A DNA stretch of 64,000 bases from Deltaproteobacteria bacterium (GCA_018436855.1 JAHDKO010000016.1:7286-71285); one strand, 5' to 3'. Counted from the stretch's first letter, positions 2,282 to 52,580 are shown. Made by a program: numbers and translations. The notes: a model not told the origin generated them from the sequence alone.

Positions 2282-2293
2282 TGAATACCAAGT

Positions 2294-2875: not shown

Positions 2876-3074
2876 TCTTCTTCCTCCACTCTCTGAAAAT
2901 TTTTCTTTGAATATCTGCTGTCTGCTCGATGGTTGCAGACTCAAGTCCACAAGAGGGACACATAGAAATTTGCGACTGATACGACACCCTGACTCCCCGG
3001 AAAACCAATGAATCCTTTTTATTGACAAGCTGCATACTCGTTTTACATTCCGGGCATATTAACTGCTTGATCAT
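2859..3074 (-). CDS. YgiT-type zinc-ribbon protein
   Basis: CPECK...17aa...CPSCG arrangement in a 71-aa protein, consistent with the YgiT/MqsA-type zinc finger. Confidence 0.45.
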   Translation of the reverse strand: MIKQLICPECKTSMQLVNKKDSLVFRGVRVSYQSQISMCPSCGLESATIEQTADIQRKIFREWRKKNANRH

Positions 3075-3672
3075 AGCCTACCTCGTTTTTCCTGATCCAC
3101 TTCTTGATGAGTTTCTTCGACTGTCTTTTGTATACCTCGGCAATGGCATCCTCACGCGATTCAAAAAGGTTTTCTTGCCGATCCATCCCGTACATCTCAA
3201 GTAACCTGAGTTCAACCACTACAGTATCAGTAAGCCCCCCTTGAGCCTCTATATGAAGCATAGGAACACTTCTCCTGAGATATCTCCCGATCAGGATTGC
3301 CCGATGGCAATTCTGTGGTTCCTTCTCCGCGCACAAGAGACAACACCTATACATCTCCATTCCCTTTTTTACCCGGCCAATGCTTCCCCGGAATGCTTTT
3401 GATTGTGCGATAAGCTCCCAATCAGGTGTTCCATTTCTAAAAAAGTTTTCATTTGAAGGATGTACCCCCAGATCAGGCATTGGCACATAAAGAATTCCAG
3501 CGTCCTTGAGTTTTTTTCTTAAAACGTCCTGGTTATAATCAGGATACCGCGAAGAAAAGGGCTTGCTTCTCACATCAATTATGGAATTTATTTTGAAAAA
3601 CTTGAGAGGTTCCAAAAATTCCTCAAAGGAATCAAAAGCAGCATACCCTATGGTGTAAAGATTTCCGCTCAT
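3043..3672 (-). CDS. DUF488-family protein with C-terminal extension
   Basis: N-terminal LYTIGYAAF...DVR pattern typical of DUF488. Operonic with the neighbouring genes. Confidence 0.4.
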   Translation of the reverse strand: MSGNLYTIGYAAFDSFEEFLEPLKFFKINSIIDVRSKPFSSRYPDYNQDVLRKKLKDAGILYVPMPDLGVHPSNENFFRNGTPDWELIAQSKAFRGSIGRVKKGMEMYRCCLLCAEKEPQNCHRAILIGRYLRRSVPMLHIEAQGGLTDTVVVELRLLEMYGMDRQENLFESREDAIAEVYKRQSKKLIKKWIRKNEVGYDQAVNMPGM

Positions 3673-4190
3673 TTACCGCCCCCCTGTGACATCTCAGCTA
3701 TTTTAAGGGCAAGCGTCGCAACCTGGATTGATTCTTTGAATATATCCTCACGAGTGCCATTGCGATAAACAAACTCAGAAATAGCCTCGGCTACCTCTCC
3801 AACTTCCTCGGAAAGATATGTTTCCCACTCAAAAGGTGACCGCTCCTGAACACCCCATTTCTGGATCTGCCTTTCGTTTTCCCGAAATATATGATCAACA
3901 AGAAATGAAATCGATTTAAGTTTCTGATCTTTCCATATCGGCGGGATAAAACGAGACTGCCAAACATCAAAGGGAGCCGTACATCCACAGTCAAGACAAC
4001 GACACCAATACTCATTATCTCCACCATCCATGCATATCCGTGAACCATTCTCCTTTAGCGTTTTAGCAGTTGCCCGATAAATATCCCTCGCCAAATTTTT
4101 TGCTTCATCGACCGACATCCCATGCTCAACATTACCAAGAGATACAAATATATGATCTTCGCTATCAGCCCATGCTTTTTTCTTCTCCAT
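3669..4190 (-). CDS. Cys-rich N-terminal domain fused to a MazG-like nucleotide pyrophosphohydrolase domain
   Basis: The C-terminal QKWGVQERSPFEWETYLSEEVGEVAEAI resembles the MazG EExxE motif region. The N-terminal CMDGGDNEYWCRCLDCGC is a Cys cluster. RBS GGAGG precedes the ATG at 4190. Confidence 0.4.
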   Translation of the reverse strand: MEKKKAWADSEDHIFVSLGNVEHGMSVDEAKNLARDIYRATAKTLKENGSRICMDGGDNEYWCRCLDCGCTAPFDVWQSRFIPPIWKDQKLKSISFLVDHIFRENERQIQKWGVQERSPFEWETYLSEEVGEVAEAISEFVYRNGTREDIFKESIQVATLALKIAEMSQGGGK

Positions 4191-4212
4191 TACTCAACCT
4201 CCATTTATTCAT

Positions 4213-4256
4213 TATTATCTACATAACATAGATAGGCCATTTTGTCAAGTATTATT
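4213..4256 (-). promoter_or_regulatory. Sigma70-type promoter (family B): AATAATAC-TTGACA-N17-TATGTT
   Basis: On the minus strand: aggaaataatacTTGACAaaatggcctatctatgtTATGTA, about 25 nt upstream of the RBS/ATG of gene 3669..4190. Confidence 0.45.
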
Positions 4257-4300
4257 TCCTGTTGAATAAGTTTATGAGAAACTATCCAAGTATGCATACA

Positions 4301-4343
4301 GGTATTATTCTTTGAGCAGGAAATAAATTGAGCACAAAAAAAG
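4301..4343 (-). promoter_or_regulatory. Conserved element A, copy 1 (candidate activator-dependent promoter)
   Basis: +strand ggtattattctttgagcaggaaataaattgagcacaaaaaaag. Matches the consensus GTATTATTCTTTGAGnGGGAAATAAAACGnCnnCAAAAAAAA seen at 9 other loci. Confidence 0.5.
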
Positions 4344-4376
4344 AGCCAGTTCCCTTTTCAGGAAACCAGCTCTTTT
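4336..4376 (-). terminator. Candidate rho-independent terminator after gene 4390..4605
   Basis: Imperfect 13-bp stem (agagccagttccc / ggaaaccagctct) followed by a T-run on the minus strand. Confidence 0.35.
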
Positions 4377-4389
4377 GGTCTATAACTTT

Positions 4390-4605
4390 TTAATACATCA
4401 ACGGCATGAATAATCCATCTCCTCCTTTGAAAGTAAACCCTATCGGGCCAAGTCTTTCTCCAGGATAGAGTTTTAGATCACCAAAAACCGTCGCAAGGCG
4501 AAGTATAAGCGATGCATCAATATAGCCATCGTTCTTCCAGGGGTACTTGCACCGTTCGCTGTCTGGGTTACAGAATGGGGCCAATATTTCAGCCAATGTC
4601 TTCAT
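4390..4605 (-). CDS. hypothetical protein (71 aa)
   Basis: ORF with good coding-like composition in a same-strand array. No recognisable motif. Confidence 0.35.
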   Translation of the reverse strand: MKTLAEILAPFCNPDSERCKYPWKNDGYIDASLILRLATVFGDLKLYPGERLGPIGFTFKGGDGLFMPLMY

Positions 4606-5165: not shown

Positions 5166-7532
5166 TTACGCAGCCTTCAGCTCATAGAGAACAAACTGTT
5201 TTTTTCCCGGAACCTCGATCAGTCGGATTGGCTTTCCATTAAGCTCCCCATGTTTCTTGTCGTATGACCCCACCTTTTTCTTGCGATAGTAGATATCACC
5301 CTTAAAAAAGATGAACTCATGCTTTCCGTCAACATGGGCAACTCCGATAAACTCGCCACCAATGGTTCTCTGGGCATATACCATTCCTCTGACTACTTGC
5401 TGATATTGAACAGAAGCGGTATGATCGCCTTTTGTATAGGTGGTGGTTACTGTTTCAGTGGTTTCGGGATCATTAAGGTATGAGTCAGATTCAACTTCCT
5501 GCTTCTTATATCTGTTCCATACCTCCTGCAAAGAGGATTTGTTCTCATGCCGGTTACCCAACAATTCCCTGGCAAGAGCAAAGAGCATGCTGCTTTCGCT
5601 GTTTGCTATTGCCGCCAGTCCCTTATCGCTCAGATCGCCTTCAACAGCCATGGCCGTTTCGAGCTTGCTTGCAATGAGCGTAAGAGCCTTTTCCTGCACG
5701 GTTTCAGCGTATGACAGGTAATAAACTCTCACATCTTTATTCTGGCCTATTCTCCAGCTACGCCGGGATGTTTGACGCAGAGTATAGATGGAATACCCTG
5801 TCTGGAAAAACAAGATTGTGGGGAATTCGTAAAGATCGAGTCCTGTCTGAACCAAACGGGGATTTGTAATAAGCCCGTCATACTCACCAGTTGCGATCTT
5901 TTCTTTAACCCACGCTTCACGTTTTTCCGTGCTCACCGTGTTTGATCTGAGAACGAGTAACCTGATACCTTCTCTTTCGAATTTTTCCACGATTTCAGGT
6001 ATCAGATCCCTTGTACCTGTATGCTCCAAACACACCAGACATTTCCGGCCTTCAGCCAATTCCTGTTTTGCCAGCTCAATGATCTTTTCCTCTTTGGGCA
6101 AAACATCGATGTCTAATGCAGGAGCCTCGGCAATAACCTCATTCACACCATTGTCGTTCATGAGAGTGATCAACTCAGGTTTTCGGCATCCGTCAGGATA
6201 AGCCAGAAGGGAATTGATCATTTTGCCCAAAAGCCGCTTATCACCACGAGCCAAGGCTTCTTTAACCGCATTTGTCAGGGTTTCCTCGAAATCTTTGTAC
6301 TCAATCTTCTGGATCTCATCCATCGACACCGGAACGATAATTTCATCATAAGGTGGCAATGATTTTGAAACATCAGAAAGTCGTACAAACACACTGTTTT
6401 CGAGAAGCATGTCAGTTAATATCAGTGGGCTTATTCCGGGTTTCTCTCTGGAGCTTACCAGCTTCCGGTTTGTCCCACCAATACTTGCGACATTGTGTTT
6501 CCCGTCCTCGACATAAACATGTTCAAGAATTCCATACAGCTTTGCGAACTGCATGGTCTTCCCGTACTTCAAACCCTTGGCATTCATCTTTTGCGGATTG
6601 AGTCTCCACATGATGTAGTACAGGTTTGTGCTGTACCCTCCGAGCAAAGTACCGGTTAATGCAAGTGTACGTTTGCACGAAGAAGCAAGATCAGCGAAAG
6701 CCTGACCCTGGCCTGTACCGCCGCCTTTCAACTCATGAACTTCATCAGCCAGAAACAGATCAAACGCGCCTTTCAGATATCGTTTGATATATTCAGCTTT
6801 TGCGTAACGCCTGAATCGACCTCCAGGCTGATACAATGGCTCACCACACAGTACAGTGGTTCCGTCATCGTTGGTCCGAATTTCATTGATGCATTTTGTC
6901 TTTTTGTTCTTTCGAACACTCTCGATTAAATCAGGATCAATCTCTCTGCCACACCGAGGGCAATATCCGTTATGAGCAATATGTTTTTGCTCATAGAGAG
7001 CCTTGCTTTTACCCTGGCACGATATTACACCCTCGATCTGGTAATGCAGCTTTGCCCTCTCTTTCCCGATAACCCACACTTCCATGTTCTTGGGTTTGGT
7101 GCGGTTTTTTCGGAGATTTACAAGCTCTGCCATAGATTTTCCGTTAAGATTGATAACAGTGCATCCAGGTATGGTTTCCTCTGCTTCCCTGATCCATTTC
7201 TGAACCAGATGACCAGGACACATAACCAGGACGCGCTTGGCATCGAGCAAGTAGGCTACTGCTAAAGCCATGATAGTTTTGCCGGTTCCCATCTCGCCAC
7301 AAAGGGTTTCCCCTCTTGCAACCTGAAAACCTTTTGTCACAGCTAAAACGGCATCCTCCTGGGCGGGAAAGAGCTTGCGCTTGAGATTATCCAACCGACT
7401 AGCCCTTTTAATATCCAAAACATCTCGGTTCTTAGGATCGTACAAGGGCTTCAACTCACTCTTGACACGATCTTTTAATTCTTCCGAGAACTCGGATAGA
7501 AAATCCTTTAATGAAATAGTATCCGTTGACAT
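5166..7532 (-). CDS. SNF2-family helicase (DEAH-box) with zinc ribbon
   Basis: Walker A GEMGTGKT, DEAH box LFLADEVHELKG, CPRCG zinc ribbon and a C-terminal helicase domain. Start at ATG 7532 preceded by GGAGG. Confidence 0.8.
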   Translation of the reverse strand: MSTDTISLKDFLSEFSEELKDRVKSELKPLYDPKNRDVLDIKRASRLDNLKRKLFPAQEDAVLAVTKGFQVARGETLCGEMGTGKTIMALAVAYLLDAKRVLVMCPGHLVQKWIREAEETIPGCTVINLNGKSMAELVNLRKNRTKPKNMEVWVIGKERAKLHYQIEGVISCQGKSKALYEQKHIAHNGYCPRCGREIDPDLIESVRKNKKTKCINEIRTNDDGTTVLCGEPLYQPGGRFRRYAKAEYIKRYLKGAFDLFLADEVHELKGGGTGQGQAFADLASSCKRTLALTGTLLGGYSTNLYYIMWRLNPQKMNAKGLKYGKTMQFAKLYGILEHVYVEDGKHNVASIGGTNRKLVSSREKPGISPLILTDMLLENSVFVRLSDVSKSLPPYDEIIVPVSMDEIQKIEYKDFEETLTNAVKEALARGDKRLLGKMINSLLAYPDGCRKPELITLMNDNGVNEVIAEAPALDIDVLPKEEKIIELAKQELAEGRKCLVCLEHTGTRDLIPEIVEKFEREGIRLLVLRSNTVSTEKREAWVKEKIATGEYDGLITNPRLVQTGLDLYEFPTILFFQTGYSIYTLRQTSRRSWRIGQNKDVRVYYLSYAETVQEKALTLIASKLETAMAVEGDLSDKGLAAIANSESSMLFALARELLGNRHENKSSLQEVWNRYKKQEVESDSYLNDPETTETVTTTYTKGDHTASVQYQQVVRGMVYAQRTIGGEFIGVAHVDGKHEFIFFKGDIYYRKKKVGSYDKKHGELNGKPIRLIEVPGKKQFVLYELKAA

Positions 7533-7671
7533 GTTTCCTCCGAAGTTTGCCCACAAGACAACTATCCCCGCAGGGAAAAAGTTGTTCCCTGTAGGAATAA
7601 TGTTTGTTTGGAATAATTGAAAGGGAGTGTGCTACGAACTACATATTATGAAGAGTTGCCTTTTTATGACT

Positions 7672-8229
7672 TTATTTCCATAACTCTTCCTGAACGATCT
7701 GTGTAAGAATAAAGCCTTCCAACTGCGCTTCGTCAGGTGTTTGCATTACACAACCCTTCACGCCTTCGCCCAGGCCGATGCAACGAACCGTTTCTCCTTT
7801 TTCGGCCCATAGCCATCTGAAGATCATTTCTGACCATTCCTGTTTGAGTGGGGTGGATACGGTGGCATCCAGCCATTTATGAAACTGATCGAGAATATTT
7901 TCATCGGATGTACCGTACAAGATCCGGGATTCATTCGATTCCCCGAATAAATCCTTATTATACAAAATCCGGTGAAGTCCGTTCTCGATTCTCTTGCTGA
8001 TTACCCGGTAATTGCCGTAACTTGTTCTTGTCATAAAACAGGATGCTTCCTCGTGTTCCAGATCGATTTCCTGGTTCTGAAGAAACATTGCCGTCAAAGC
8101 AAGAACATCGCCCTCTCTACCGAATACGGACAGGAAATAGCACTCTGGCCTATATCCATGTTTTGATAGGATAACTTTATCGCAATAGCAGCGAATTCCA
8201 TTACCCATCACTGATATAACTCCATACAT
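7672..8229 (-). CDS. hypothetical protein (185 aa)
   Basis: ORF between the methyltransferase and the helicase. No recognisable motif. Confidence 0.4.
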   Translation of the reverse strand: MYGVISVMGNGIRCYCDKVILSKHGYRPECYFLSVFGREGDVLALTAMFLQNQEIDLEHEEASCFMTRTSYGNYRVISKRIENGLHRILYNKDLFGESNESRILYGTSDENILDQFHKWLDATVSTPLKQEWSEMIFRWLWAEKGETVRCIGLGEGVKGCVMQTPDEAQLEGFILTQIVQEELWK

Positions 8230-8239
8230 GGTAATTCTC

Positions 8240-9313
8240 CTATTTTATATCGATGAAGCTCTGGGTTTGGTAATCCAAAGCCCGGACAATGATTTCGAAC
8301 CGTTCAATGACGGTGATTTTTGTTTTTTCGTCACCATCATCAGCTTCGGTATCCTCATACCCGGTTTCTTCCTGGTATTTTCTGACCGATCCTTTGATGA
8401 GAAATTTTCGATCACCCTTACCGACCATTCCATTCATCATGCCGCTTGCCATCAACATAGCCATGTGACCGTTTCGCAAAGGGGTAAGCGGCTGAAGTGA
8501 TGACATGGTTTGAATCTTGGTTTCCAGTAGGAATGAGTCCGTAAGCCCATCATTCTGAACCTGAACATAAGCCTTATCAGGATCAAAACGGGTGCTTCTG
8601 AACATGAAAGTTTTCTCGTTTCGGTCGATTACCGGCACCGGGTATGAACAGCGATAAAACTCTTCGCTATTCACTTGTGGAATATGAACCTGAACGTCTT
8701 CCACAGGAACCGATGTTACAGCGTCCCAGAAATCTTTGTTGCTTTTGTAAACCTTTTCCGGGAACGGCCCAGTTGGCCTTTGTCCCATGATCACTACCTG
8801 TTTGAACCGATCAAATTCTTCACCAGGAAAGGCGAAGATTGCAGGGTTTTCCAGGCGCATGATCAGGAACTTTTTCACCTTTTTCACTGTGCTCCAGGGA
8901 ATGATATAGATGAGAACTCCTTTTGGCGCGAGGTACGTGAAATGTTGGTGTAAAAAACGGGCTTCTACTCGGATTTTGTTATCATCAACATCTCCTGTCT
9001 CATCGTCATAGGGAGGGTTCAGAAGCAGGGCTCCGAAAGCTGCACGAGAAATGTGTGTTTCGAAAATACTATCGCATTTCAGTACAGCATCGAGCCTCCC
9101 ATCTGCTACATCAGCCCGATTCTCATCAAGCTCAATCCCGTATGTGGAACACTCTTCGTAACCATCTGCGAGAAGGGACAATGGTTCACCATCCCCGCAG
9201 CATGTATCAAGATATCTGGTTTTCCCCTGAATCACTAGAATCTTCCTGAGTGCTTCAATCACGCACAAAGGAGTAGGGTAAAACCCCATTTTTGCTTGTC
9301 CTGCCAATCTCAT
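8240..9313 (-). CDS. N6-adenine (or N4-cytosine) DNA methyltransferase, orphan
   Basis: Motif I LDTCCGDGEPL and motif IV LLNPPYD. FYPTP near the N-terminus. Start ATG 9313 preceded by AAGGAG. No adjacent restriction endonuclease. Confidence 0.75.
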   Translation of the reverse strand: MRLAGQAKMGFYPTPLCVIEALRKILVIQGKTRYLDTCCGDGEPLSLLADGYEECSTYGIELDENRADVADGRLDAVLKCDSIFETHISRAAFGALLLNPPYDDETGDVDDNKIRVEARFLHQHFTYLAPKGVLIYIIPWSTVKKVKKFLIMRLENPAIFAFPGEEFDRFKQVVIMGQRPTGPFPEKVYKSNKDFWDAVTSVPVEDVQVHIPQVNSEEFYRCSYPVPVIDRNEKTFMFRSTRFDPDKAYVQVQNDGLTDSFLLETKIQTMSSLQPLTPLRNGHMAMLMASGMMNGMVGKGDRKFLIKGSVRKYQEETGYEDTEADDGDEKTKITVIERFEIIVRALDYQTQSFIDIK

Positions 9314-9356
9314 GTCAATCTCCTTTGGTTGGTTTATTTTTATCCTGGACCACGGC

Positions 9357-9674
9357 CTATGAGATCCTTTTGACAGCCGTGATATGTGAGAAGGAAATAC
9401 ATCTCGGACTTGTTGCCTCGAAACTGCCCGGTTTTTGGGTAATTTCAAAATCATCAGGCAGCAAGATATCGAGTATGATCAACTCATCTTCTTCAAGCTC
9501 ATCCAGCAACCAATTCATCAATGCGTCATGAACAGCTTCGGGAGAAGTGAACAGGTAAATTGCATCCTGTATTTCACCCGCTGCTCTACTCCGCTTTCCT
9601 TTTTGGGGAATAAGTCCTTGGTGCCGGATATTCTTGAGATATTTATCTGTGGTCACATGATAATATGTCTTCAT
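9357..9674 (-). CDS. hypothetical protein (105 aa)
   Basis: Start MKTYYHVTTDKYLKNIRHQGLIP preceded by GAGGAA RBS. Faint resemblance to ART-like or DarT-like N-termini, not confirmed. Confidence 0.35.
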   Translation of the reverse strand: MKTYYHVTTDKYLKNIRHQGLIPQKGKRSRAAGEIQDAIYLFTSPEAVHDALMNWLLDELEEDELIILDILLPDDFEITQKPGSFEATSPRCISFSHITAVKRIS

Positions 9675-10711: not shown

Positions 10712-10960
10712 TCAGTAATCCACATGGAACAAAGTTCCGTCTGTTGCTTTGATGATATAATCATCAGCCACGTTCTTTATGCCGAGTTTGAATACCTGAG
10801 AAATCATACTCCTATGAAAATACGCAGTAATTTTTCTCGGTACTCTTTGCATGGGATTTGATCCGCAATCCGAAGGATCATACGAAGTTTTTGAAACACC
10901 AACAGGCATGTAACCGACATGTTTACCAGACTCTCTCCTTAAAATTTCCCTGATAGTCAT
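10712..10960 (-). CDS. hypothetical protein (82 aa)
   Basis: ORF. No recognisable motif. Confidence 0.35.
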   Translation of the reverse strand: MTIREILRRESGKHVGYMPVGVSKTSYDPSDCGSNPMQRVPRKITAYFHRSMISQVFKLGIKNVADDYIIKATDGTLFHVDY

Positions 10961-11064: not shown

Positions 11065-11176
11065 AATCTTTGATTGAATGTTTGTAGGAATTGCTTGAAC
11101 TACTTTTACCGTTCATCGACGGCTCAATGATCAAATAAATTGATCAAGGATATGTTATGAGTGAAGTATAAGCATA
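11065..11176. repeat. Left copy of ~110-bp imperfect inverted repeat (partner at 18925..19040)
   Basis: The core ggctcaatgatcaaataaattgatcaaggatatgttatgagtgaagtataagcata matches the reverse complement of 18925-18980 at 54/56 bp. Similarity extends about 55 bp further through ttgaatgtttg...gcttgaactacttttacc. It contains the palindrome TGATCAAataaaTTGATCA. Confidence 0.6.
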
Positions 11177-11208
11177 TTCAACACAAAAAGTCAAGCATAA
11201 AATGCTTA

Positions 11209-11243
11209 TTTTCCTTGACAAATTATTCCATCTATGTTATTTA
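11209..11243 (+). promoter_or_regulatory. Sigma70-type promoter (family B) for the nuclease gene: TTGACA-N17-TGtTATTTA
   Basis: ttattttccTTGACAaattattccatctatgtTATTTA with an extended -10 TGn. Shares the AATAATAC/ATTATTTT upstream box with the other family-B copies. Confidence 0.45.
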
Positions 11244-11295
11244 GATAACAAAATAGATCAGGAGGCACTTTCAAATAGCACATGGGGGGTGGGAA

Positions 11296-12063
11296 GTGAA
11301 TGTTAAGAGGGTAATATTTAGTGTTTGCTTGTTTCTGGCGTTTGGTTTTTCGGGCGTACATGCCGGTAATCCCGGCTTGCCGGTCTATGAGGATGTTCTA
11401 TTCAACAAGTTGGATCAGATCGTTCATCATACGGCCTACTCGCTTCAATACAAGGAAGACTGTGAACAAGCTGCCTGGGTTGCGTACAAGATCGAGTATG
11501 ATAAGCTGATTCATTCGATCAAACGCTCAGATAATTTTCGGGTAGACCCCAAGGTAATAACGAAGTCTGCCACACTAGCAGATTATCGGGGTTCCGGGTA
11601 TGATCGAGGTCATCTTGCCCCGGCTGCATCCATGAAATACTCGAAAATCACCATGAGCGAGTCGTTCTATATGTCGAACATGAGCCCACAGCATCCAGGC
11701 TTAAACCGGGGTATCTGGAAAAAACTTGAGGATAAGGTAAGGCGATGGTCAAACAAACATGGTGATCTGTATGTTGTGAGCGGTCCCGTATTAAGGGGCC
11801 AGCCGAACAAGGATACCAAGTTCATTGGACCGAACAATGTTTGTGTGCCGGAATACTATTACAAAGTGATCCTGGATTATAATGAACCCGAGATAAAGGC
11901 CATCGGCTTTTTCTTTCCCAATGTTCCCTGTGTTGACGATCTTGAACAATTCGCCCTATCTGTTGCTAGTATTGAGGTCATAACCGGCATTGATTTTTTC
12001 TCCGGGCTCCCGGATCATATCGAGGATGTAATTGAGAACGAGTGCAACTATCATGCTTGGTGA
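11296..12063 (+). CDS. Secreted DNA/RNA non-specific endonuclease (His-Me finger, NUC1/EndoG-like)
   Basis: N-terminal signal peptide and the SGYDRGHLAPAASM active-site motif (DRGH). GTG start after GGGTGGGAAG. Confidence 0.8.
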   Translation: MNVKRVIFSVCLFLAFGFSGVHAGNPGLPVYEDVLFNKLDQIVHHTAYSLQYKEDCEQAAWVAYKIEYDKLIHSIKRSDNFRVDPKVITKSATLADYRGSGYDRGHLAPAASMKYSKITMSESFYMSNMSPQHPGLNRGIWKKLEDKVRRWSNKHGDLYVVSGPVLRGQPNKDTKFIGPNNVCVPEYYYKVILDYNEPEIKAIGFFFPNVPCVDDLEQFALSVASIEVITGIDFFSGLPDHIEDVIENECNYHAW

Positions 12064-12075
12064 AAGGGTTAAACC

Positions 12076-12300
12076 ATGACGAACTTTTTGCTCAAAGACG
12101 TAGACGATTCCTTTTGGACCACGGTTAAGAAGAAGACGCAGCAAGAGGATATCCATTTGAAGCACTTGATCCTTGAGCTTCTTCGCCTTTGGCTCAAGGG
12201 GGATATCCGGGTTGACACAAAGAAGCTCAGGAAGATCCACGAAGAGGTTAAATCGAAGGGGTATGCACAGAGAACCAGAAGGGGGCAAGACGAACCTTGA
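12076..12300 (+). CDS. small protein, possible ribbon-helix-helix
   Basis: 74 aa with an N-terminal beta-strand-like segment followed by helices. Sits between the nuclease and VRR-NUC genes. Confidence 0.35.
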   Translation: MTNFLLKDVDDSFWTTVKKKTQQEDIHLKHLILELLRLWLKGDIRVDTKKLRKIHEEVKSKGYAQRTRRGQDEP

Positions 12301-12659
12301 TTATTCCCGAGGCAGATGTTCAAAAACAAATACTTGATTATCTTGCATGGAGACATGTCTTTGTTTGGCGGCAAAATTCCGGTGCTGTCGTATACGAGGA
12401 CGAAAACAGGAATAAGCGGTTCGTCCGGTTCGCTTCCGTCAACGGGATCTCCGACATTCTGGGAATACTGCCCGATGGAAGACTGCTGGCTATCGAGGTT
12501 AAAAAAAAAGGCAAAAAACCATCCGATGATCAAGAGAAATTTTTGGCTGCAATTAAAAGAAACAATGGTGTAGCAATTCTGGCATACTCGCTTGATGATG
12601 TAATCAAAGAACTAGACTGTGTTTCTTTTTCCCAAAAACATATTGCACGACCTTCTTGA
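12297..12659 (+). CDS. VRR-NUC domain protein (PD-(D/E)xK nuclease)
   Basis: QKQILDYL...RQNSG...GISDILGILPDGRLLAIEVKKKGKKPSDDQEKFLAAIKRNNGVAIL matches the VRR-NUC signature (D..E.K and Q..F). Confidence 0.75.
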   Translation: MIIPEADVQKQILDYLAWRHVFVWRQNSGAVVYEDENRNKRFVRFASVNGISDILGILPDGRLLAIEVKKKGKKPSDDQEKFLAAIKRNNGVAILAYSLDDVIKELDCVSFSQKHIARPS

Positions 12660-12913
12660 TAGGAGTTTCTTATATGAGTCAAAGAAATATTGCCCCTGTT
12701 CTGAATCAACTTTTGTCAGACGAACTTTCCGACAAACCTGAATGGCGCATAGATGCCGTTGACTTGGCAAAAAAGATTCCTGATATCGACTACAAATTTC
12801 CTTCGCACATCATTCCCTTGGTCAAGGCCGCAGTAAAGAAAGCCAACCGGGAATCGGGCATGAGAAAACAAAACTTGAGTCGCTATTTGATAAATTTGTG
12901 GACCAGGAAGTGA
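12656..12913 (+). CDS. hypothetical protein
   Basis: ORF overlapping the upstream stop by 4 nt. Confidence 0.3.
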   Translation: MIGVSYMSQRNIAPVLNQLLSDELSDKPEWRIDAVDLAKKIPDIDYKFPSHIIPLVKAAVKKANRESGMRKQNLSRYLINLWTRK

Positions 12914-13047
12914 TGGAGCCCACTTTTTATTAACAATAAACGTTCGTTTTTTGCTCATGGCAACAAGATACATAAACGGGTTGTTTATTTTAATCAAAAC
13001 CATTAAGAATAACTCGATTATGACGATTATATAAAGAGAGGATCAAG

Positions 13048-13662
13048 ATGAGCGTTTTATCCTATATCCGGGTGAGCACAAACACGCAGGACGTTAAGAA
13101 TCAGCGGTACGAAATCCTGGAGTATGCCCGAACGCATGATCTGCAGATTGATCGGTTCATCGAAATTGAGATATCATCTCGGAAGGACAGAAAGCAGAGA
13201 CGAATTGATGAGATCCTGCAGGAACTTTCTTCGGGAGATACCCTGATCGTATCCGAGTTGTCCCGTCTGGGCAGATCAACAGGCGAAGTGATCGAGCTTG
13301 TCAACGAGCTGGTCAAAAAGAAGATCCGATTCATCGCCATCAAGCAGAATCTCAGCATCAACAATGGTCACGATATGTCCAGTAAGATCATCGTGACGCT
13401 CTTCGGGCTCATGGCAGAGCTTGAGCGGGATCTGATCAGCATGAGAACCAAAGAGGCTCTTGCCGCGAAGAAGGCCCAGGGGAAGGTACTCGGCAGGCCG
13501 AAGGGCTCCCTGGGAAAGAGCAAGCTCGATGGAAAGGAGGGGGAGATTGCCCGATTGCTGGAATCGAAGGTGTCTAAAGCTGCCATTGCCAGGATCACCG
13601 GCGTGTCCTGGTTGACACTCGATAGGTTTATTAAGTCCCGTGGATTGAGCAAGCAATCTTGA
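13048..13662 (+). CDS. Serine recombinase (resolvase/invertase family) with C-terminal HTH
   Basis: Catalytic YIRVSTNTQD, GDTLIVSELSRLGRS and a C-terminal HTH (ARITGVSWLTLDRF). RBS GAGAGGA. Confidence 0.85.
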   Translation: MSVLSYIRVSTNTQDVKNQRYEILEYARTHDLQIDRFIEIEISSRKDRKQRRIDEILQELSSGDTLIVSELSRLGRSTGEVIELVNELVKKKIRFIAIKQNLSINNGHDMSSKIIVTLFGLMAELERDLISMRTKEALAAKKAQGKVLGRPKGSLGKSKLDGKEGEIARLLESKVSKAAIARITGVSWLTLDRFIKSRGLSKQS

Positions 13663-13803
13663 TTGATTTCTCGCTCGACGAATATTTATAGTTGACATAC
13701 ATGCATGACATGTATTACATGTGTTGCATGTATTATTCATACTGTTATTATCTTACTAGTGCATCAAGAATGAGGAAGAGAGACAGTAAGGAGGAATTGT
13801 CAA

Positions 13804-14013
13804 ATGTTATCAGTGAGGCTCCCAAAGGAGTTGGAGGATCGATTAACGGACCTAGCTGAAGTAACGAAAAGGAGTAAAACATTTTATATCCGTGAGGCTA
13901 TTGAAAAATATCTGGAAAACATGGAAGATATGTATATCGCCTTGTATCGGCTTGAGAATCCTGACGAACGGATATCAAACAAAGAAGTAGGAGAACGACT
14001 TGGATTAAAATGA
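13804..14013 (+). CDS. relB: RelB/DinJ-family antitoxin
   Basis: MLSVRLPKELEDRLTDLAEVTKRSKTFYIREAIEKYLE is a classic RelB RHH. An upstream promoter carries CATG-rich palindromes (13692-13750). Confidence 0.75.
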   Translation: MLSVRLPKELEDRLTDLAEVTKRSKTFYIREAIEKYLENMEDMYIALYRLENPDERISNKEVGERLGLK

Positions 14014-14030
14014 ATCTTGAAACTTATTGA

Positions 14031-14315
14031 CTGAACCTGGGGGAGGGGTATGGAAATCTTCAATGGGATAAAAGAGCATTCAGAGAATTTGAGAAAATCG
14101 ATAGGGTATGGCAAGAAAAGATCTACAGTTTCATTGTAGATCAGATCGAGACAGAAGATGATCCACGAAGGATCGGCAAACCCCTTCAAGGCAAGTTCAA
14201 GGGCTTTTGGAAATATCGCATAGGGGATTATCGTCTTGTTTGCCATATCCAGGACAAGATTCTCACCGTTCTGATTCTTAGAGCCAGACACCGAAGCAGC
14301 GTGTATAACCGTTAA
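14031..14315 (+). CDS. relE: RelE/ParE-family toxin, reading frame intact but no canonical in-frame start (possible -1 frameshift relative to ATG at 14050, or CTG start)
   Basis: Manual translation of the frame after stop 14028-30 gives ...GNLQWDKRAFREFEKIDRVWQEKIYSFIVDQIETEDDPRRIGKPLQGKFKGFWKYRIGDYRLVCHIQDKILTVLILRARHRSSVYNR, a clear RelE fold sequence. The only ATG (14050) is in the -1 frame. Confidence 0.55.
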   Translation: MNLGEGYGNLQWDKRAFREFEKIDRVWQEKIYSFIVDQIETEDDPRRIGKPLQGKFKGFWKYRIGDYRLVCHIQDKILTVLILRARHRSSVYNR

Positions 14316-14503
14316 TTGTTAATACATAAAAGCCCTGAACATCGGAGCTATTAGCCTGATCATGGAAGGATCTGAGGGTTTGCAATGTTGCGTAATCAAT
14401 TATTTTCTTTTTCTCATGCCTCATTTCTTAATTCCAATCATTCAGGATGCCCACCATTCCATGCTTGACGCACAGAACAGTGGGCATCACGCCAGCATCT
14501 TTC

Positions 14504-15049
14504 TTAACTTCCCGGTCCCGATCCCATTCCCCGATCCGGGCAAATCTCGTCATCCGAACCCTTATCTATCTCTTTGAATTTATCGATACCATCAAGGTCG
14601 AGTTCGCATTTTCTGCCGGCATACTCGCCTTTCATGATCGCATAGATATCTTCCCTTAGATCGTTGGGACTCAGAACACCCTTGAAAACCACTTCGATTC
14701 CGGCGCTTCCCGCTGATCCAAACTCGACATCTCCGGTTCCGAGCATGCGCTGAAGGATCGACTGCTTGACATTGACGCTTCTCAGATCGGCTATTCGAAT
14801 CGTGCTGGTGCTCTTGCTCAAAATTCCCTGGGTGCTTTGAATAAAATCATTCGTTACCAGATAGTGCCACATGCAACGCTGAAGAGCTATTGCCGCCCCA
14901 AGAATGACAAACAACCCGGCAACGTACTTGAATGCTACCGAGGTGTATATCAAAAGCAGAATGCAAACCACGATCAGCCCGATGATTCCCAATGACTGCT
15001 CTCTCCATGCCGGTCTGTCCTCAAAAACAACTTTATTTCCATCTCTCAT
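14504..15049 (-). CDS. Membrane protein with bacterial PH domain (bPH_2/YdbS-like)
   Basis: Two TM helices followed by a YLVTNDFIQSTQGIL...IRIADLRSVNVKQSILQRMLGTGDV pattern. Confidence 0.5.
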   Translation of the reverse strand: MRDGNKVVFEDRPAWREQSLGIIGLIVVCILLLIYTSVAFKYVAGLFVILGAAIALQRCMWHYLVTNDFIQSTQGILSKSTSTIRIADLRSVNVKQSILQRMLGTGDVEFGSAGSAGIEVVFKGVLSPNDLREDIYAIMKGEYAGRKCELDLDGIDKFKEIDKGSDDEICPDRGMGSGPGS

Positions 15050-15114
15050 ACTACACCCCCTGGTTTATCCTCTTAATCCCTGTTCTTGCTTGTCATATCA
15101 ACGTAGTGTTCTTC

Positions 15115-15846
15115 TTAGAAATTCCCGACTATCGTCTTGGAAATCTGCGCCTCAAGCACTGGCCGTGCTTCTTCGAAATCGAGATTCACCTTGTTTGCGG
15201 ACGCGAGAACCCTTAAATTGTATCTCATGAAGTCGCTCTTGGACGTTGCGGTCTGCTTGACCTGTGTCGATGTTCCCTGCTTGATGTCGCTCTCCACGGT
15301 CTGTTCTATAGCAACATCCGACCTCTCGGAAATTTGCAGATCAATCATCATGGAGTAGGTAACATTTTTCACAAGCGAGTCCGCGACAAATCCAGCTCCC
15401 GCACCTATTGCGCCCCCGATCCCTATGCCGGAAACACGCTGATTTATCAAACCGCCTATCGCCGCTCCAGCAACCAACCCCTCCATTGGAGCACCGTACC
15501 CGGCATTCACGACTTTCTGGAGCATTGCGGGATCGTCCTCTCCTATATAAAGAATTTTGACCTGGAGAACGTAATAGCTATCCCTTGGGGATGCCGTGAT
15601 CTCATACCCTTTGCTGATCAGCTCCTTTTCGATCAAGTCCTTGATCTGAAAATTGTGCTGCGTTGTATTTCGGACATCCACGAAAGCGGTTCTCTCGAAA
15701 TCGCCCATGATATTCAGAAAAATATTACCCTCCGTTTTTACATCAACATCGAGGTTCCTGTGCTCGATTGCCGTTCTGGTTGCCGAACATCCGCTCAGGA
15801 CAAATACCGCCAAAATAATTCCCAAAAACACGATCTTTCTATTCAT
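15115..15846 (-). CDS. traT: TraT-like outer-membrane lipoprotein (surface/entry exclusion, complement resistance)
   Basis: 243 aa with lipobox LSGC and a Gly-zipper segment. C-terminal ...ANKVNLDFEEARPVLEAQISK is highly similar to F-plasmid TraT as I recall it. Confidence 0.7.
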   Translation of the reverse strand: MNRKIVFLGIILAVFVLSGCSATRTAIEHRNLDVDVKTEGNIFLNIMGDFERTAFVDVRNTTQHNFQIKDLIEKELISKGYEITASPRDSYYVLQVKILYIGEDDPAMLQKVVNAGYGAPMEGLVAGAAIGGLINQRVSGIGIGGAIGAGAGFVADSLVKNVTYSMMIDLQISERSDVAIEQTVESDIKQGTSTQVKQTATSKSDFMRYNLRVLASANKVNLDFEEARPVLEAQISKTIVGNF

Positions 15847-15861
15847 ATTTCCTCCTTTTTT

Positions 15862-17019
15862 TTAACTCAGTCGTTTACCCAAAACTTCCTGGATAGCCCT
15901 TGACAGCTCTATCATCGCATACGGCTTTTGGAGCACCTTTTTCACGCCGAGCTTGTGTAATTTTCCCCTGGTAACCAGATTGCTGTAGCCGGTGCATAAG
16001 ATTATTGGGAAATCAGGTCTTTTTTGCAGAACCTTCACCGTGAGTTCTTCGCCGTCCATCTCGGGCATATTGATATCAGAGATCATGATGTCGAACCTGT
16101 CAGGCGTTTCCATGAAGAGGTTCAGGGCTTCCTTCCCGTTTGAGGCAACAGCTACTTCGTATCCATCCCGCTTCAGAACCTCCTTGGCGAGAAATGATAC
16201 ATTCTGCTCATCGTCCACAAAAAGAACCGTATGCCCGGTTGGTCTATGTTCCTGCACATTCTTGATTAACAAGTTTTTCTTTTGTTCTTGCTGTCTATCT
16301 CCCTCTTCACACATAGGGAGATAGACGGTGAACGTGGAGCCCTTTCCCTCATTGCTTTTACAGGTAATAAATCCCTTGTGAATCTTTACGATCTCGTCAA
16401 CGATCGCAAGCCCCAGGCCGTTTCCGTCTTCTTTTGTCGTAAAGTGCGGTTCAAAGATCCTGTCAACCAGCTTATCGGGAATGCCTATTCCTGTGTCGGA
16501 TATGGACATAATCATATAATTTTGCGGTGGCATGTTCCCTGTATCCAAGACCGTGTTCTTAACCTCGATCCCGATCTTTCCCCCTCCCGGCATGGCCTGG
16601 ATGGCATTAGTGCAGAGATTCATGAAAAGGCGATTCATCTGGCCTATACTGGTCATAATGTCGCCCGTTATATTGAGATTGCATTCAATGATAATATCTC
16701 TGGGTACGAATGCACGAACCATCTCAATGAATGTTCGCATGACAGGCTCAATAGTCACCCGCTCAAAGTTGGCATCCCCGTCTTCTTTCAGGGTAAATAT
16801 CTGCTGAATAAGGGTTCTCGCCTGTTCTGCAGCGTTTGCAGCATTACCAAGGCTGGCTTCCACCTCTCCAGGATTATCCAGGTGAGCCTTCGCCAGCTCG
16901 ATACAGTTTATCACTACGGTAAGAATATTATTAACATCATGCGCCACACCTCTCGTTCTGGTTCCGGGTTTCTGGTTTGTTCTCCCGTAAGAAAAACTTT
17001 CCTGTTGCTGAGTGATCAC
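15862..17019 (-). CDS. Hybrid histidine kinase (HisKA-HATPase-REC), no sensor domain
   Basis: H-box HDVNNILTVV, HATPase G-boxes (DTGIGIP, GLGL) and a C-terminal receiver VLFVDDEQNV...DINMPEMDG. Confidence 0.8.
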   Translation of the reverse strand: MITQQQESFSYGRTNQKPGTRTRGVAHDVNNILTVVINCIELAKAHLDNPGEVEASLGNAANAAEQARTLIQQIFTLKEDGDANFERVTIEPVMRTFIEMVRAFVPRDIIIECNLNITGDIMTSIGQMNRLFMNLCTNAIQAMPGGGKIGIEVKNTVLDTGNMPPQNYMIMSISDTGIGIPDKLVDRIFEPHFTTKEDGNGLGLAIVDEIVKIHKGFITCKSNEGKGSTFTVYLPMCEEGDRQQEQKKNLLIKNVQEHRPTGHTVLFVDDEQNVSFLAKEVLKRDGYEVAVASNGKEALNLFMETPDRFDIMISDINMPEMDGEELTVKVLQKRPDFPIILCTGYSNLVTRGKLHKLGVKKVLQKPYAMIELSRAIQEVLGKRLS

Positions 17020-17040
17020 ATTCCCTCCTGTTGTTTTAAA

Positions 17041-17634
17041 TTAACAAAGTTCTTTAAAGGCTTTACCGGAAGCCACCAGCTTGGTTCTTTCCCCTAAATG
17101 CCAGAGTATTTCGTCTACCTGATCCTCGATTTTTCGTGATCGGATCACATAGACCTTTTCCCTATATCTCTCAAGAATTTCGGATAACTCTCCGAAAGAG
17201 GCTATCTGCTCATTGCTCTCATTCCCATCCAGCAACATGAACGCGATCACATCATATATTTTCTCTGCATGGTGGAGCGCATACTTGGAAAATCGGGCTA
17301 CATCATTTTTAAGAGATGATTTTTGAGCGGGTTTTTTTGGGTTAATTTCGCAGGAGCATCTTGCTACAATTTCAATAGCACTCTCAATTGTGGTTCCATC
17401 TGCCACAAAATAAGGCAAGTTTGTTTCTTTCCAAATTTTATCGAAAAGAATATCCTCCTTCATCCGAAAAAACATATTTATCGGCATCTTGCCAGGGCAT
17501 ACATCCTTGAAAAAGTTTGATCGAATCCACTCATCTGCGCGATTTTCCAGAAACGGACACACCAGTTCCTCGCTCAACCTTCTTGCTAATTCCATTCTGG
17601 TTTTCAGCTCAACTCCACAAATAGCGATCCTCAC
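17041..17634 (-). CDS. Degenerate P-loop paralog of the 2294..2875 NTPase (Walker A lost)
   Basis: MRIAICGVELKTRM aligns with MRIAISGSEGTGKS. YFVADGTTIESAI aligns with FVADRSVADNVAY. GTG start with AGAGGGGGA RBS. Confidence 0.45.
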   Translation of the reverse strand: MRIAICGVELKTRMELARRLSEELVCPFLENRADEWIRSNFFKDVCPGKMPINMFFRMKEDILFDKIWKETNLPYFVADGTTIESAIEIVARCSCEINPKKPAQKSSLKNDVARFSKYALHHAEKIYDVIAFMLLDGNESNEQIASFGELSEILERYREKVYVIRSRKIEDQVDEILWHLGERTKLVASGKAFKELC

Positions 17635-17670
17635 GCGACAAATCCCCCTCTAAAATTTTGCGTTCATGTT

Positions 17671-17714
17671 GGTATTATTCTTTGAGGGGGAAATAAAACG
17701 CCGGGAAAAAAAAT
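17671..17714 (-). promoter_or_regulatory. Conserved element A, copy 2
   Basis: ggtattattctttgagggggaaataaaacgccgggaaaaaaaat, 36 nt upstream of the GTG of 17041..17634. Confidence 0.5.
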
Positions 17715-17780
17715 GGATATATTTCTTTGATACAGGATTACAAAAGCAGGTATGCTTTTGTGCAAAAAGGTGTATCTTAA

Positions 17781-18083
17781 TCAGGTTTTCTTGCGCGTCT
17801 GAATGAAATCCTTGATCTCTCCGATAAGATGATCAAGATCATCATCCCCGAGAATATACAAGTCCTTCTTGCTTGCCTCGATATTCTTAGCCCGATGTTC
17901 TCTAAGCATATACTGGACGATTCGCTCGATGGTAAGTGGAATCTTGAGATCGCCACGCAGATACCGGCTGGCAGTCGGTTGTCTCACGCCGATACGCTCA
18001 CCAAACTCCGTTACGCCCAACCCAAGCTCTTTCATGGCCTCGGCAAGATCGCCGGGTGTCATTGTGCCAACAATCACTTTCAT
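17781..18083 (-). CDS. HTH DNA-binding protein
   Basis: VTEFGERIGVRQPTASRYLRGD is a helix-turn-helix. Confidence 0.5.
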   Translation of the reverse strand: MKVIVGTMTPGDLAEAMKELGLGVTEFGERIGVRQPTASRYLRGDLKIPLTIERIVQYMLREHRAKNIEASKKDLYILGDDDLDHLIGEIKDFIQTRKKT

Positions 18084-18359
18084 AGTTTTTCGTGCTCAAA
18101 ATCGAATACTTCCAGACAGAAAGCACGTTCCTCCCTTATTATTTTCGCTTATTTATTTCTATTTACCAATCACCATCACCAATGGTTACATCTATCCCAC
18201 CAAGAGCTGTAAGTTCCTGTTGTTTACGCCCATCAACAGAATGAGAACAACCCAATAATAAGTGAAATCCTTTCCAATACTTCGGATTCAGTCATGCTCA
18301 TATCTTTTCCTTTTTTCAGTGAAAGATTATGCCCTCTGAACTAATGCCATCAGTTCAGA

Positions 18360-18800
18360 TTACTGGTTTCGTGTGTACTCGTCCCGCCCCACGATGAAGA
18401 ATGCCTCATATTCTGCACCAGGAGCGAAAAGAACCATCCCTTTACCCTTGCTCAGATCATGATTGATCAGTCTGTTCTCCAACTCGGTCACGTATTTTTT
18501 CTCATCCTGCTCTTCCCTGACAGCCCTCGCATATGCCTCTCCCTTGAAATGTGCATGAATGAGCATTACAATACTAGACCAGAGCATGACGGCTGCGATC
18601 CCTGCCATACCGACAAGGCCCCAATCTGTCTCGCACAACCCGCGAATCACGTTATGCACCATGATAAAAGACACGATCATCAGGACAAGGGCTCCGGGAA
18701 AAACCATCCTTGCCTCAAACACTCCATCAGCCCTGGCGTATTTCAGATACTCCCAAGCCGCCTTAATTACCATCCTTGCTTTCTCTGTTTTGTTACCCAT
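18360..18800 (-). CDS. membrane protein, hypothetical
   Basis: Start MGNKTEK at 18800 with GGGAGG RBS. The longer ORF to 18830 would overlap its own promoter. Two or three predicted TM helices. Confidence 0.5.
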   Translation of the reverse strand: MGNKTEKARMVIKAAWEYLKYARADGVFEARMVFPGALVLMIVSFIMVHNVIRGLCETDWGLVGMAGIAAVMLWSSIVMLIHAHFKGEAYARAVREEQDEKKYVTELENRLINHDLSKGKGMVLFAPGAEYEAFFIVGRDEYTRNQ

Positions 18801-18814
18801 TTTACGCCTCCCAT

Positions 18815-18857
18815 GATACTTGTATAACATACTTAGCGTATAATGTCAAGTATTATT
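18815..18857 (-). promoter_or_regulatory. Sigma70-type promoter (family B): AATAATAC-TTGACA-N17-TATACA
   Basis: Minus strand aaataatacTTGACAttatacgctaagtatgtTATACA. Confidence 0.45.
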
Positions 18858-18924
18858 TTAGCTTTCTTTAAATTCTCTAAAATTTTGCTTTAATCTCACA
18901 ATTTCCTTGACATTTTAACCAAAG

Positions 18925-19040
18925 TATGCTTATACTTCATTTATAACATATCCTTGATCAATTTATTTGATCATTGAGCCACCGAAGAGTGGTAAAAGTA
19001 GTTCCCAAGCAGTTTTCAGGTAATTTCTCCAAACATTCAA
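18925..19040. repeat. Right copy of ~110-bp imperfect inverted repeat (partner at 11065..11176)
   Basis: See the left copy for the alignment. Confidence 0.6.
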
Positions 19041-19150: not shown

Positions 19151-19669
19151 ATGCAAAGAAAGGTGAGTAGAATTGAAAGGCATGATACTATGTGGGATAT
19201 TATTGGCCCCACCGTCCTGGTCGCTTTCTTTGGGTTTTGCACATGGAGAAATGGCAACTTGTTCAGCATTACAATGGTTGTGGTTTTTACCATAATCATG
19301 ACCTATGTGGTACTGATCCACTTGTTAGCTCTTCATAAGCAGGCGAGGCAAAATAGCAAAAAGGATCATGCTCTCAAAAAAGAATCGAAAAGAAAAAATC
19401 CACACCAGAACCAGAGACTCGGAAGAGATTTCATCAGAAAAACCATACTTATTGGTTTTGATGGAATCTCGGTTGCCCAGGCGTGTTTGGAATTCCTCAA
19501 AAAACAAGGAATCAACACCCCTGAGCCGTATGACCGGCTGTATGCCGCCCTGGAAGATCCGTTCTGGGGAAAGGAAACAGCAGAGCGAATATTCGATTTC
19601 ATGAATCGAATTGCTCCAGAGGGAAGCGAATTCCGGGAAATCGATGAAAATGCCTGGGGATTCGCATAA
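19151..19669 (+). CDS. membrane protein, hypothetical
   Basis: AGGAGG RBS. Two TM segments followed by a soluble C-terminal domain. Confidence 0.5.
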   Translation: MQRKVSRIERHDTMWDIIGPTVLVAFFGFCTWRNGNLFSITMVVVFTIIMTYVVLIHLLALHKQARQNSKKDHALKKESKRKNPHQNQRLGRDFIRKTILIGFDGISVAQACLEFLKKQGINTPEPYDRLYAALEDPFWGKETAERIFDFMNRIAPEGSEFREIDENAWGFA

Positions 19670-20444: not shown

Positions 20445-20488
20445 ATATGACATATAGCATACTTGAAGTTATTTGTCAAGTATTATTT
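20445..20488 (-). promoter_or_regulatory. Sigma70-type promoter (family B): AATAATAC-TTGACA-N17-TATATG
   Basis: Minus strand gaaaataatacTTGACAaataacttcaagtatgcTATATG. Confidence 0.45.
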
Positions 20489-52539: not shown

Positions 52540-52580
52540 TATCTCTATAACATACATTAAGTATAATGTCAAGCATAAAT
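52540..52580 (-). promoter_or_regulatory. Sigma70-type promoter (family B): TTGACA-N17-TATAGA
   Basis: Minus strand tattatttatgcTTGACAttatacttaatgtatgtTATAGA. Confidence 0.45.

Follow-up and report, generated by a model that had tools for sequence, protein, structure and literature searches.

Examination of a 64,000-nucleotide (nt) stretch of DNA from a Deltaproteobacteria bacterium (GCA_018436855.1 JAHDKO010000016.1:7286-71285), referred to here as the window, revealed a pair of inverted arms that bracket a 7.8-kb segment encoding, among other proteins, a serine recombinase. On balance, we lean toward reading these arms, namely the left arm IR-L (11065-11195, with the functional, outward strand being -) and the right arm IR-R (18906-19040, +), as a duplicated promoter-leader cassette of which IR-R is the ancestral copy and IR-L an extra one, rather than as a substrate for recombination. 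Judging from their sequence and surroundings, the arms most likely serve as promoter and 5' leader for a gene encoding a 172-amino acid (aa) protein behind IR-R and for an operon behind IR-L that comprises an 82-aa gene, a methylase gene and an SNF2 helicase gene. All coordinates given are positions in the 64-kb window.

A first-pass annotation of the window had described ~110-bp inverted repeats sharing a 56-bp core at 54/56 identity, and this was borne out by repeat search, alignment and covariance model alike. The repeat search returned inverted arms of 99 nt (11097-11195 and 18906-19004) with 85% complementarity, to which alignment added an outer 26-nt piece (11074-11099 and 19015-19040, 85%), shifted by a 13-nt indel. 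Past 11074 and 19040, similarity at the outer ends fades gradually, and no direct repeat or target-site duplication flanks the arms. The 56-nt core (GGCTCAATGA...AAGCATA) presents 2 mismatches between the arms. The palindrome noted earlier in each copy, TGATCAAATAAATTGATCA, was also found, occurring exactly twice in the window, at 11128-11146 and 18955-18973, where 0.04 occurrences would be expected. Six homologues of the core served to build a covariance model, which was run on the window and on related loci and scored both arms at ~93 bits with E ~1e-23 (IR-L, match at 11091-11164, 93 bits; IR-R, match at 18937-19010, 92.8 bits). The next-best match in the window reached 11 bits, such that the 64 kb contain two copies. 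Because the arms differ from each other at ~15% of positions and because each outer flank lies on independent Logan unitigs, the repeat is not an artefact of assembly. The Logan unitigs and contigs of the source sample end at the arms, and orientation is not readable from them.

The window belongs to a conjugative plasmid, as reflected in the presence of F-type transfer genes (TraG, TraH, TraU, TrbC and TraF), together with genes encoding TraT, a ParM-like protein and a coupling protein. The nearest plasmid-borne TraH, found in Desulfosarcina, shares 34% identity with that of the window, and relatives of the window TraG are 43% identical where this was measured. Five related plasmid lineages contain the core, in each case as a single copy at the position of IR-R. 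According to both BLAST and the covariance model, one core copy is present per related locus, between the genes for a 145- or 156-aa protein and a 172- or 187-aa protein, as compared to two copies in the window. The same site is occupied in the L003/L055-L059 type of locus, in L005, in L063 and in L064. The covariance model recognized the full core in L063 and L064. L065 carries the distal part alone, with that contig stopping before hp1 and hp2, the two hairpins of the core described below. Up to 20 kb of each related locus was examined, and statements on gene order apply where the contigs reach far enough. In loci of the L003/L055-L059 type, the order is TraG, a divergently oriented 187-aa gene, the core, 145- and 79-aa genes, a helix-turn-helix (HTH) gene, a 197-aa gene, a hybrid kinase, TraT, ParE, a ribbon-helix-helix (RHH) gene and the resolvase. 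The window, read leftward between 19.7 and 13.0 kb, shows this same order in like orientation, and gene-by-gene tblastn agreed. Since the single core of the relatives is always found at the IR-R site, IR-R is considered ancestral and IR-L an addition peculiar to this plasmid. Likewise, given the synteny from the resolvase to the 156-aa gene, about two-thirds of the segment once seen as a module corresponds to old plasmid backbone. On the left side of the resolvase, Rep3 and a PriCT-type protein are encoded in the relatives, as against a nuclease, a 74-aa protein, VRR-NUC and an 85-aa protein in the window. The VRR-NUC homologue of the relatives (75% identical) lies on the other strand and in another place, with no core upstream.

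Wider searches were also conducted. Exact core patterns gave no match in genome, metagenome and viral collections. The true spacer in the core pattern measures 13 nt in both the window and L003, as compared to 15 nt in L005. The pattern GGCTCAATGAN{15,21}TCAAGGATAT, the spacer range of which misses the 13-nt form of the window and L003, gave 44 matches in large collections, all due to chance and within unrelated coding sequences, and the fitting pattern GGCTCAATGAN{11,17}TCAAGGATAT, run on the viral collection alone, gave 4 matches, again all due to chance. In the plasmid collection, nothing was detected by megablast with the module, by distant blastn with the IR-R arm or by tblastn with the 172-aa protein.

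Both folding and covariation point to two hairpins in each core. The first, hp2, corresponds to the palindrome and comprises a 7-bp stem (TGATCAA/TTGATCA) and a 5-nt loop in IR-L (11128-11146, -), with the same stem and loop being seen in IR-R (18955-18973, +). The second, hp1, reads GCCGT-CGATGA-ACGGT on the outward strand of IR-L (11108-11123, -) and GCCAC-CGAAGA-GTGGT in IR-R (18978-18993, +), and is followed by the near-invariant tract AAAAGTAGTT. The two versions of hp1 differ by two compensatory pairs and, as these are copies on one and the same plasmid, it is the structure that has been kept and not the sequence. Across the six core variants, hp2 takes the general form TGA-NNNN-loop-NNNN-TCA, with the four inner pairs covarying (TCAA/TTGA, CTGA/TCAG and TTGT/ACAA) and the loop being 5, 6 or 7 nt long. 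This variable loop length renders a hairpin likelier than a binding site for a protein dimer. In the case of hp1, the general form is GCCRY-loop-RYGGT, with a 6-nt loop and two covarying pairs. Overall, 98.8% of the cells of the two-hairpin structure are paired and 6 of its 14 pairs are changed on both sides. None of 500 shuffles matched the observed pairing or covariation score, and registers slid along the alignment paired at 20-48%. RNAalifold, unaided, arrived at the same two-hairpin structure. Single-sequence folds gave z-scores of -2.1 to -3.6 relative to shuffles, and both stem-loops were retained in folds of the full-length leader. A scan against Rfam 15 yielded no match in the window at gathering score; around IR-R, chance-level matches at E<5 were seen, none of them on the core. 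We infer that the stem-loops act in RNA rather than in DNA.

The position of the core relative to promoters is consistent with such a role. Each arm is flanked by divergently oriented genes, and the top sigma-70 match in each arm points outward, through the core, as it also does in L064. In IR-L, the predicted outward promoter is TTGACT-18-TATACT (11165-11194, -; 10/12 match) and in IR-R it is TTGACA-18-TATACT (18907-18936, +; 11/12 match). The -35 sequence CTTGAC is invariant in all six core variants, with no indels from CTTGAC to hp2, and the strongly conserved portion of the arm lies 3' of the outward promoter, which would be the active one. Conservation continues down to the ribosome-binding site, and in the relatives an extra covarying hairpin appears just 5' of that site. 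Facing inward are motif matches of the form TTGACA-N14-TGTTAT, one serving the nuclease/VRR-NUC operon (11215-11240, +) and the other, kept in relatives, serving the operon encoding the 156-aa protein, the HTH protein, the histidine kinase and TraT (18824-18849, -). The earlier placement of both copies in divergent promoter regions thus holds, with divergent genes and promoter matches on both sides. As the outward and inward promoters are separate, each arm amounts to a back-to-back promoter pair.

The inward promoter family recurs in the window, with 7 matches at no more than one mismatch versus 0.43 expected. Sites of this type are also found upstream of operons at 4223-4248 (-), 20454-20479 (-) and 52547-52572 (-), with spacers that are partly alike. 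This recurrence suggests a common plasmid promoter type. Elsewhere in the window, a 279-aa protein (55866-56705, +) is weakly similar, over residues 199-270, to RpoS region 4 (E = 6e-6) and may be a plasmid-encoded sigma-like factor, perhaps tied to the plasmid promoter family.

Behind the IR-L leader lies the 82-aa gene (10712-10960, -), which gene order places first in a leftward operon encoding a DUF6094 methylase and an SNF2 helicase. Behind the IR-R leader lies the 172-aa gene (19151-19669, +), with core sequence being present upstream of every homologue seen; in the protein collection, this family comprises six clusters only. The leftward operon headed by IR-L continues at 5166-9454 (-) with genes encoding a DUF6094 methyltransferase, an SNF2-type helicase and DUF5983, a set resembling anti-restriction or establishment genes of conjugative elements.

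The small serine recombinase encoded between the arms (13048-13662, +; Pfam Resolvase, 4.5e-36) has a site of its own. The ~120 nt directly 5' of its start are near-invariant in three unrelated contexts, with the site accompanying the gene into those of L060 and L061. Alignment of this res-like region (12925-13047, +) revealed a candidate crossover dyad, CAATAAACG-TT-CGTTTTTTG (12934-12953), ~105 nt from the ATG, and a further dyad, ATAAAC-N5-GTTTAT (12972-12988). The two dyads, at 12936-12952 and 12972-12988, share the half-site ATAAAC, with differing spacings. The candidate crossover dyad is unique in the 64 kb, and the arms match it at 11-12 of 20 positions, equal to what is seen with random windows. 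Nucleotide homology between the window and L055 starts at 12945, right after the central TT, a footprint such as earlier exchange at a crossover point would be expected to leave. When read relative to the gene, the window has TT as its central dinucleotide and L055, L060 and L061 have AA. As to the enzyme itself, the top NCBIfam model was that of the Mpi-family invertases (7e-60; 202 bits, under the 272-bit cut-off), while Gin, the nearest solved structure, was matched at 6e-17, versus 4e-11 for gamma-delta resolvase. Recombinases 92-95% identical to the window enzyme form a tight clade found on dozens of metagenomic contigs. The gene for one such protein, 93% identical, has toxin-antitoxin, Fic, UDG and radical-SAM genes as neighbors, and neither TraT nor TraG nor the core is found close to it. 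As such, whichever subfamily it belongs to, the recombinase very likely acts at the site adjacent to its own gene and not at the arms. The res layout and the presence of rep and toxin-antitoxin neighbors in relatives suggest a role in resolving plasmid multimers.

A degenerate second site, ACG-AA-C-TTTTTGCTCA, lies at 12079-12094 and is the sole other match to a relaxed pattern in the 64 kb. Together with the main site (12940-12957), it brackets ~860 bp containing the 74-aa, VRR-NUC and 85-aa genes, and this pair may be left over from site-specific rearrangement or may serve as a substrate for it.

In the promoter-leader model, the cassette would consist of a sigma-70-type promoter firing outward, followed by a leader of ~100 nt that opens with hp2 and continues with hp1, both set amid invariant sequence boxes, with the separate and strong promoter of the inward operon positioned back to back with the cassette. 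The ancestral IR-R copy would head the 172-aa gene. IR-L would have been gained as a second copy, in opposite orientation, during rearrangement of the left-hand region, and would now head the operon encoding the 82-aa protein, the DUF6094 methylase and the SNF2 helicase. Because the two outward transcripts would share both promoter and structured 5' end, they would respond to the same control, and co-regulation would result. The inverted geometry would be a by-product of the presence of two divergent copies, and the recombinase would work at the res-like site upstream of its own gene, most likely in resolving multimers. Of what the first-pass annotation had proposed, the duplication of a regulatory region is supported; since the core lies downstream of the outward promoters, co-regulation is better ascribed to the outward transcripts than to the two inward-facing operons named there.

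Several observations weigh against this model. The outward -10 element is canonical in only 3 of the 6 variants, reading TGTATA or TATATG in the L003/L055, L005 and L063 types. The alignment comprises six distinct variants (the two arms plus four from relatives) from a single narrow plasmid family, and 8.6 kb of the 72.6-kb source contig lie beyond the window. Covariation is blind to RNA versus single-stranded DNA (ssDNA), as well as to strand, with informative G-U wobbles numbering one per strand. Pairing between a pyrimidine box and the Shine-Dalgarno sequence is predicted in both window leaders, yet the partners differ in homologues. Moreover, hp2 is the same in both copies in the window and different between plasmids, with hp1 being free to vary, a pattern that hints at a plasmid-specific partner. 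Finally, the recombinase is nearer in homology to invertases (Gin, the Mpi model) than to gamma-delta resolvase.

Two other readings offered by the first-pass annotation treat the arms as ends of a mobile segment. The proposal that the 7.8-kb segment is inverted or excised at the arms by the serine recombinase it encodes draws on the presence of such an enzyme in the interval, on the resemblance of that enzyme to invertases (with Mpi as the best model, albeit below cut-off, and Gin as the nearest solved structure) and on the inverted orientation of the arms. It is nonetheless highly improbable, given that the conserved site of the enzyme is found by its own gene and nowhere else in the window and that the arms resemble this site no better than does random DNA. 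Furthermore, the center of the hp2 palindrome is odd and of variable length (5-7 nt), unlike the fixed 2-bp overlap of a crossover site, relatives with one core copy show the same gene order where contigs reach, and the same recombinase exists without any core. All of the relatives, each with one core copy, match the window in the orientation of the right-hand block. Flipping between the arms, possibly RecA-mediated and across a 38-nt identical stretch, would be phenotypically silent, the outward promoter and leader being the same in the two arms. As for the arms being remnant terminal inverted repeats of a transposon-like insertion, repeats of ~110 bp around a cargo-like set of genes would be expected of such an element, yet no enclosed open reading frame (ORF) contains a transposase domain according to Pfam, no target-site duplication is present, the outer ends fade gradually rather than stopping, and the stretch from the resolvase to the 156-aa gene, some two-thirds of the interval, is syntenic backbone even in plasmids at 43% TraG identity. 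With the repeat existing in relatives as a conserved single-copy regulatory region, and with the comparison of relatives revealing no empty site, nor any plasmid in which the 82-aa and 172-aa genes adjoin across one with a single copy of a short target, this origin is the least probable of those considered.

Other explanations accept the arms as regulatory or processing sequences and differ as to the molecule concerned. Were the palindromes duplex operators, bound by a plasmid repressor at both divergent promoter regions, co-regulation would occur at the DNA level and call for no RNA structure. The element does lie between divergent promoters, a neighboring operon includes an HTH_3 gene and hp2 is identical in both copies on this plasmid; as operator half-sites change together too, covariation alone is compatible with this scheme. 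Still, we consider it unlikely, since a spacer of 5, 6 or 7 nt in hp2 would rotate the half-sites against each other, the hp1 copies of one plasmid differ by compensatory changes, and the recognition helix of the HTH protein is essentially invariant across plasmids, whereas the hp2 stems differ at 3-4 positions. In particular, hp2 as operator of the adjacent HTH_3 protein found no support, as the recognition helix is constant while hp2 varies. It is quite doubtful, too, that the core is a site of ssDNA processing, such as the nic region of an origin of transfer (oriT) or a priming signal, present here in two opposed copies. A hairpin (hp1) followed by a near-invariant tail (AAAAGTAGTT), an intergenic position by the tra genes of a conjugative plasmid, a single occurrence per relative and an overall layout like that of relaxase sites (PMC4176350) speak for this idea. 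At MOBF sites, however, the nic-proximal arm is invariant for the cognate relaxase, and the U-turn GTGT or GTCT is followed by a purine (PMC4176350). Here, the nic-proximal 3' arm differs on one plasmid (GTGGT in IR-R, ACGGT in IR-L) and the tail reads TAGT|T. With both rules failing, a MOBF-type oriT was rejected. In addition, the 64-kb window encodes no TrwC homologue, even if one of the plasmids sharing the core does, and both the fixed distance of the -35 and conservation down to the ribosome-binding site better suit a promoter-leader. A related candidate was a promoter of the Frpo type, in which a long ssDNA stem holds the -35 and -10 (PMC11541004). In IR-R (18822-18935), the inward and outward promoters are complementary (23 nt, 83%) and form a long ssDNA hairpin (z = -3.2). 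This hairpin is absent from IR-L and from four relatives (z of 0 to -1.8); being found in IR-R alone, the fold is not a property of the element, and this candidate too was dismissed.

Additional features of the window were noted. In L003, positions 630-4469 encode a single 1,279-aa ORF that combines an N-terminal TrwC-type relaxase/helicase with a C-terminal match to TraN, with the window containing the TraN part alone. At 58831-61634 (+), the window encodes a TraD/TrwB-like coupling protein (446 aa), followed by an overlapping 488-aa HD-domain protein with no match to a relaxase model. MOBH relaxases bear an HD motif.

Between the arms, the gene list reported earlier was confirmed by Pfam, which detected Endonuclease_NS, VRR_NUC, Resolvase, RHH, bPH_2, TraT, HisKA/HATPase/Response_reg and HTH_3. 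One caveat concerns the ParE/RelE-like toxin ORF (14031-14315, +), which is ~90% identical to the L055 toxin and presents an upstream stop but lacks a start codon of the ATG, GTG or TTG type; CTG may serve instead, or the ORF may be in decay. Between the recombinase stop and the RHH antitoxin gene (13690-13735), TTGACATACATGCATGACATGTATTACATGTG, comprising 9-bp ACATG-type repeats, is kept in L055 (10680-10730) and, in part, in L060; it probably represents the promoter and operator of the antitoxin gene. The 156-aa membrane protein encoded next to IR-R (18360-18830) has paralogues or homologues elsewhere in related as well as unrelated plasmids, for example at 5975-6361 in L055 and 5569-5976 in L060, and looks like a module that has been shuffled within this pool of plasmid genes.

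The findings remove a tempting but wrong annotation, that of a 7.8-kb invertible or transposable cargo module equipped with its own recombinase, and provide an example of how an oppositely oriented copy of a regulatory cassette can mimic the ends of a mobile element. They also describe a compact structured element of ~75 nt that is backed by covariation, is not in Rfam and heads two operons in a plasmid family about which little is known, and they pinpoint a probable recombination site for a serine recombinase that is 92-95% conserved on dozens of contigs. Neither the element, the mechanism of which is inferred, nor the recombination site overturns present understanding.

Comparison with known systems places the recombinase and the arms apart. 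Like Tn3-type res/resolvase and plasmid multimer-resolution systems, the recombinase has a multi-dyad site of ~120 bp directly upstream of its gene; it differs in being closer in sequence to invertases than to gamma-delta resolvase. The core of the repeat recognized by Mpi, which we take to be ARACGTWCGT, is fitted by the gene-adjacent dyad AAACGTTCGT. Mpi, the master DNA invertase of Bacteroides fragilis, inverts dispersed promoter segments in trans (PMC4747536). The Mpi family offers the best model for the window enzyme, albeit below the curated cut-off, but the window contains a single full site in 64 kb, with none in the arms. With Frpo promoters, the arms share a setting in a conjugative plasmid and, in the case of IR-L, a methylase/anti-defense-like operon downstream, yet differ in that the long hairpin is limited to IR-R.

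Repeated promoter/operator regions are a feature of plasmid regulons, such as those of the IncP KorA/KorB operators and the R388 network. The arms resemble these in that several divergent promoter regions make use of one conserved regulatory sequence, placing operons under common control, and differ in that the conserved part is found mainly 3' of the promoter and contains hairpins with compensatory changes and variable loops, features that favor a transcribed leader over a duplex operator. In F-like plasmids, the traJ leader is controlled by the antisense RNA FinP, alleles of which are plasmid-specific. Here too, a 5' leader with two adjacent stem-loops, including a plasmid-specific hp2, is found on an F-type plasmid, although the genes that follow are unlike traJ, the leader occurs in two copies and Rfam offers no match. 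No consistent inward (antisense) promoter was seen across the variants, and hp2 with a T-rich tail is terminator-like in L055 alone. By analogy, hp2 and hp1 could, tentatively and with rather low probability, represent an undescribed riboregulatory leader of a small F-type plasmid family from uncultured anaerobes, in which hp2 would be read by a cognate antisense RNA or RNA-binding protein in a FinP-like manner. If true, duplication of the leader would have placed the methylase/SNF2 'establishment' operon under the plasmid-specific switch of the 172-aa gene.

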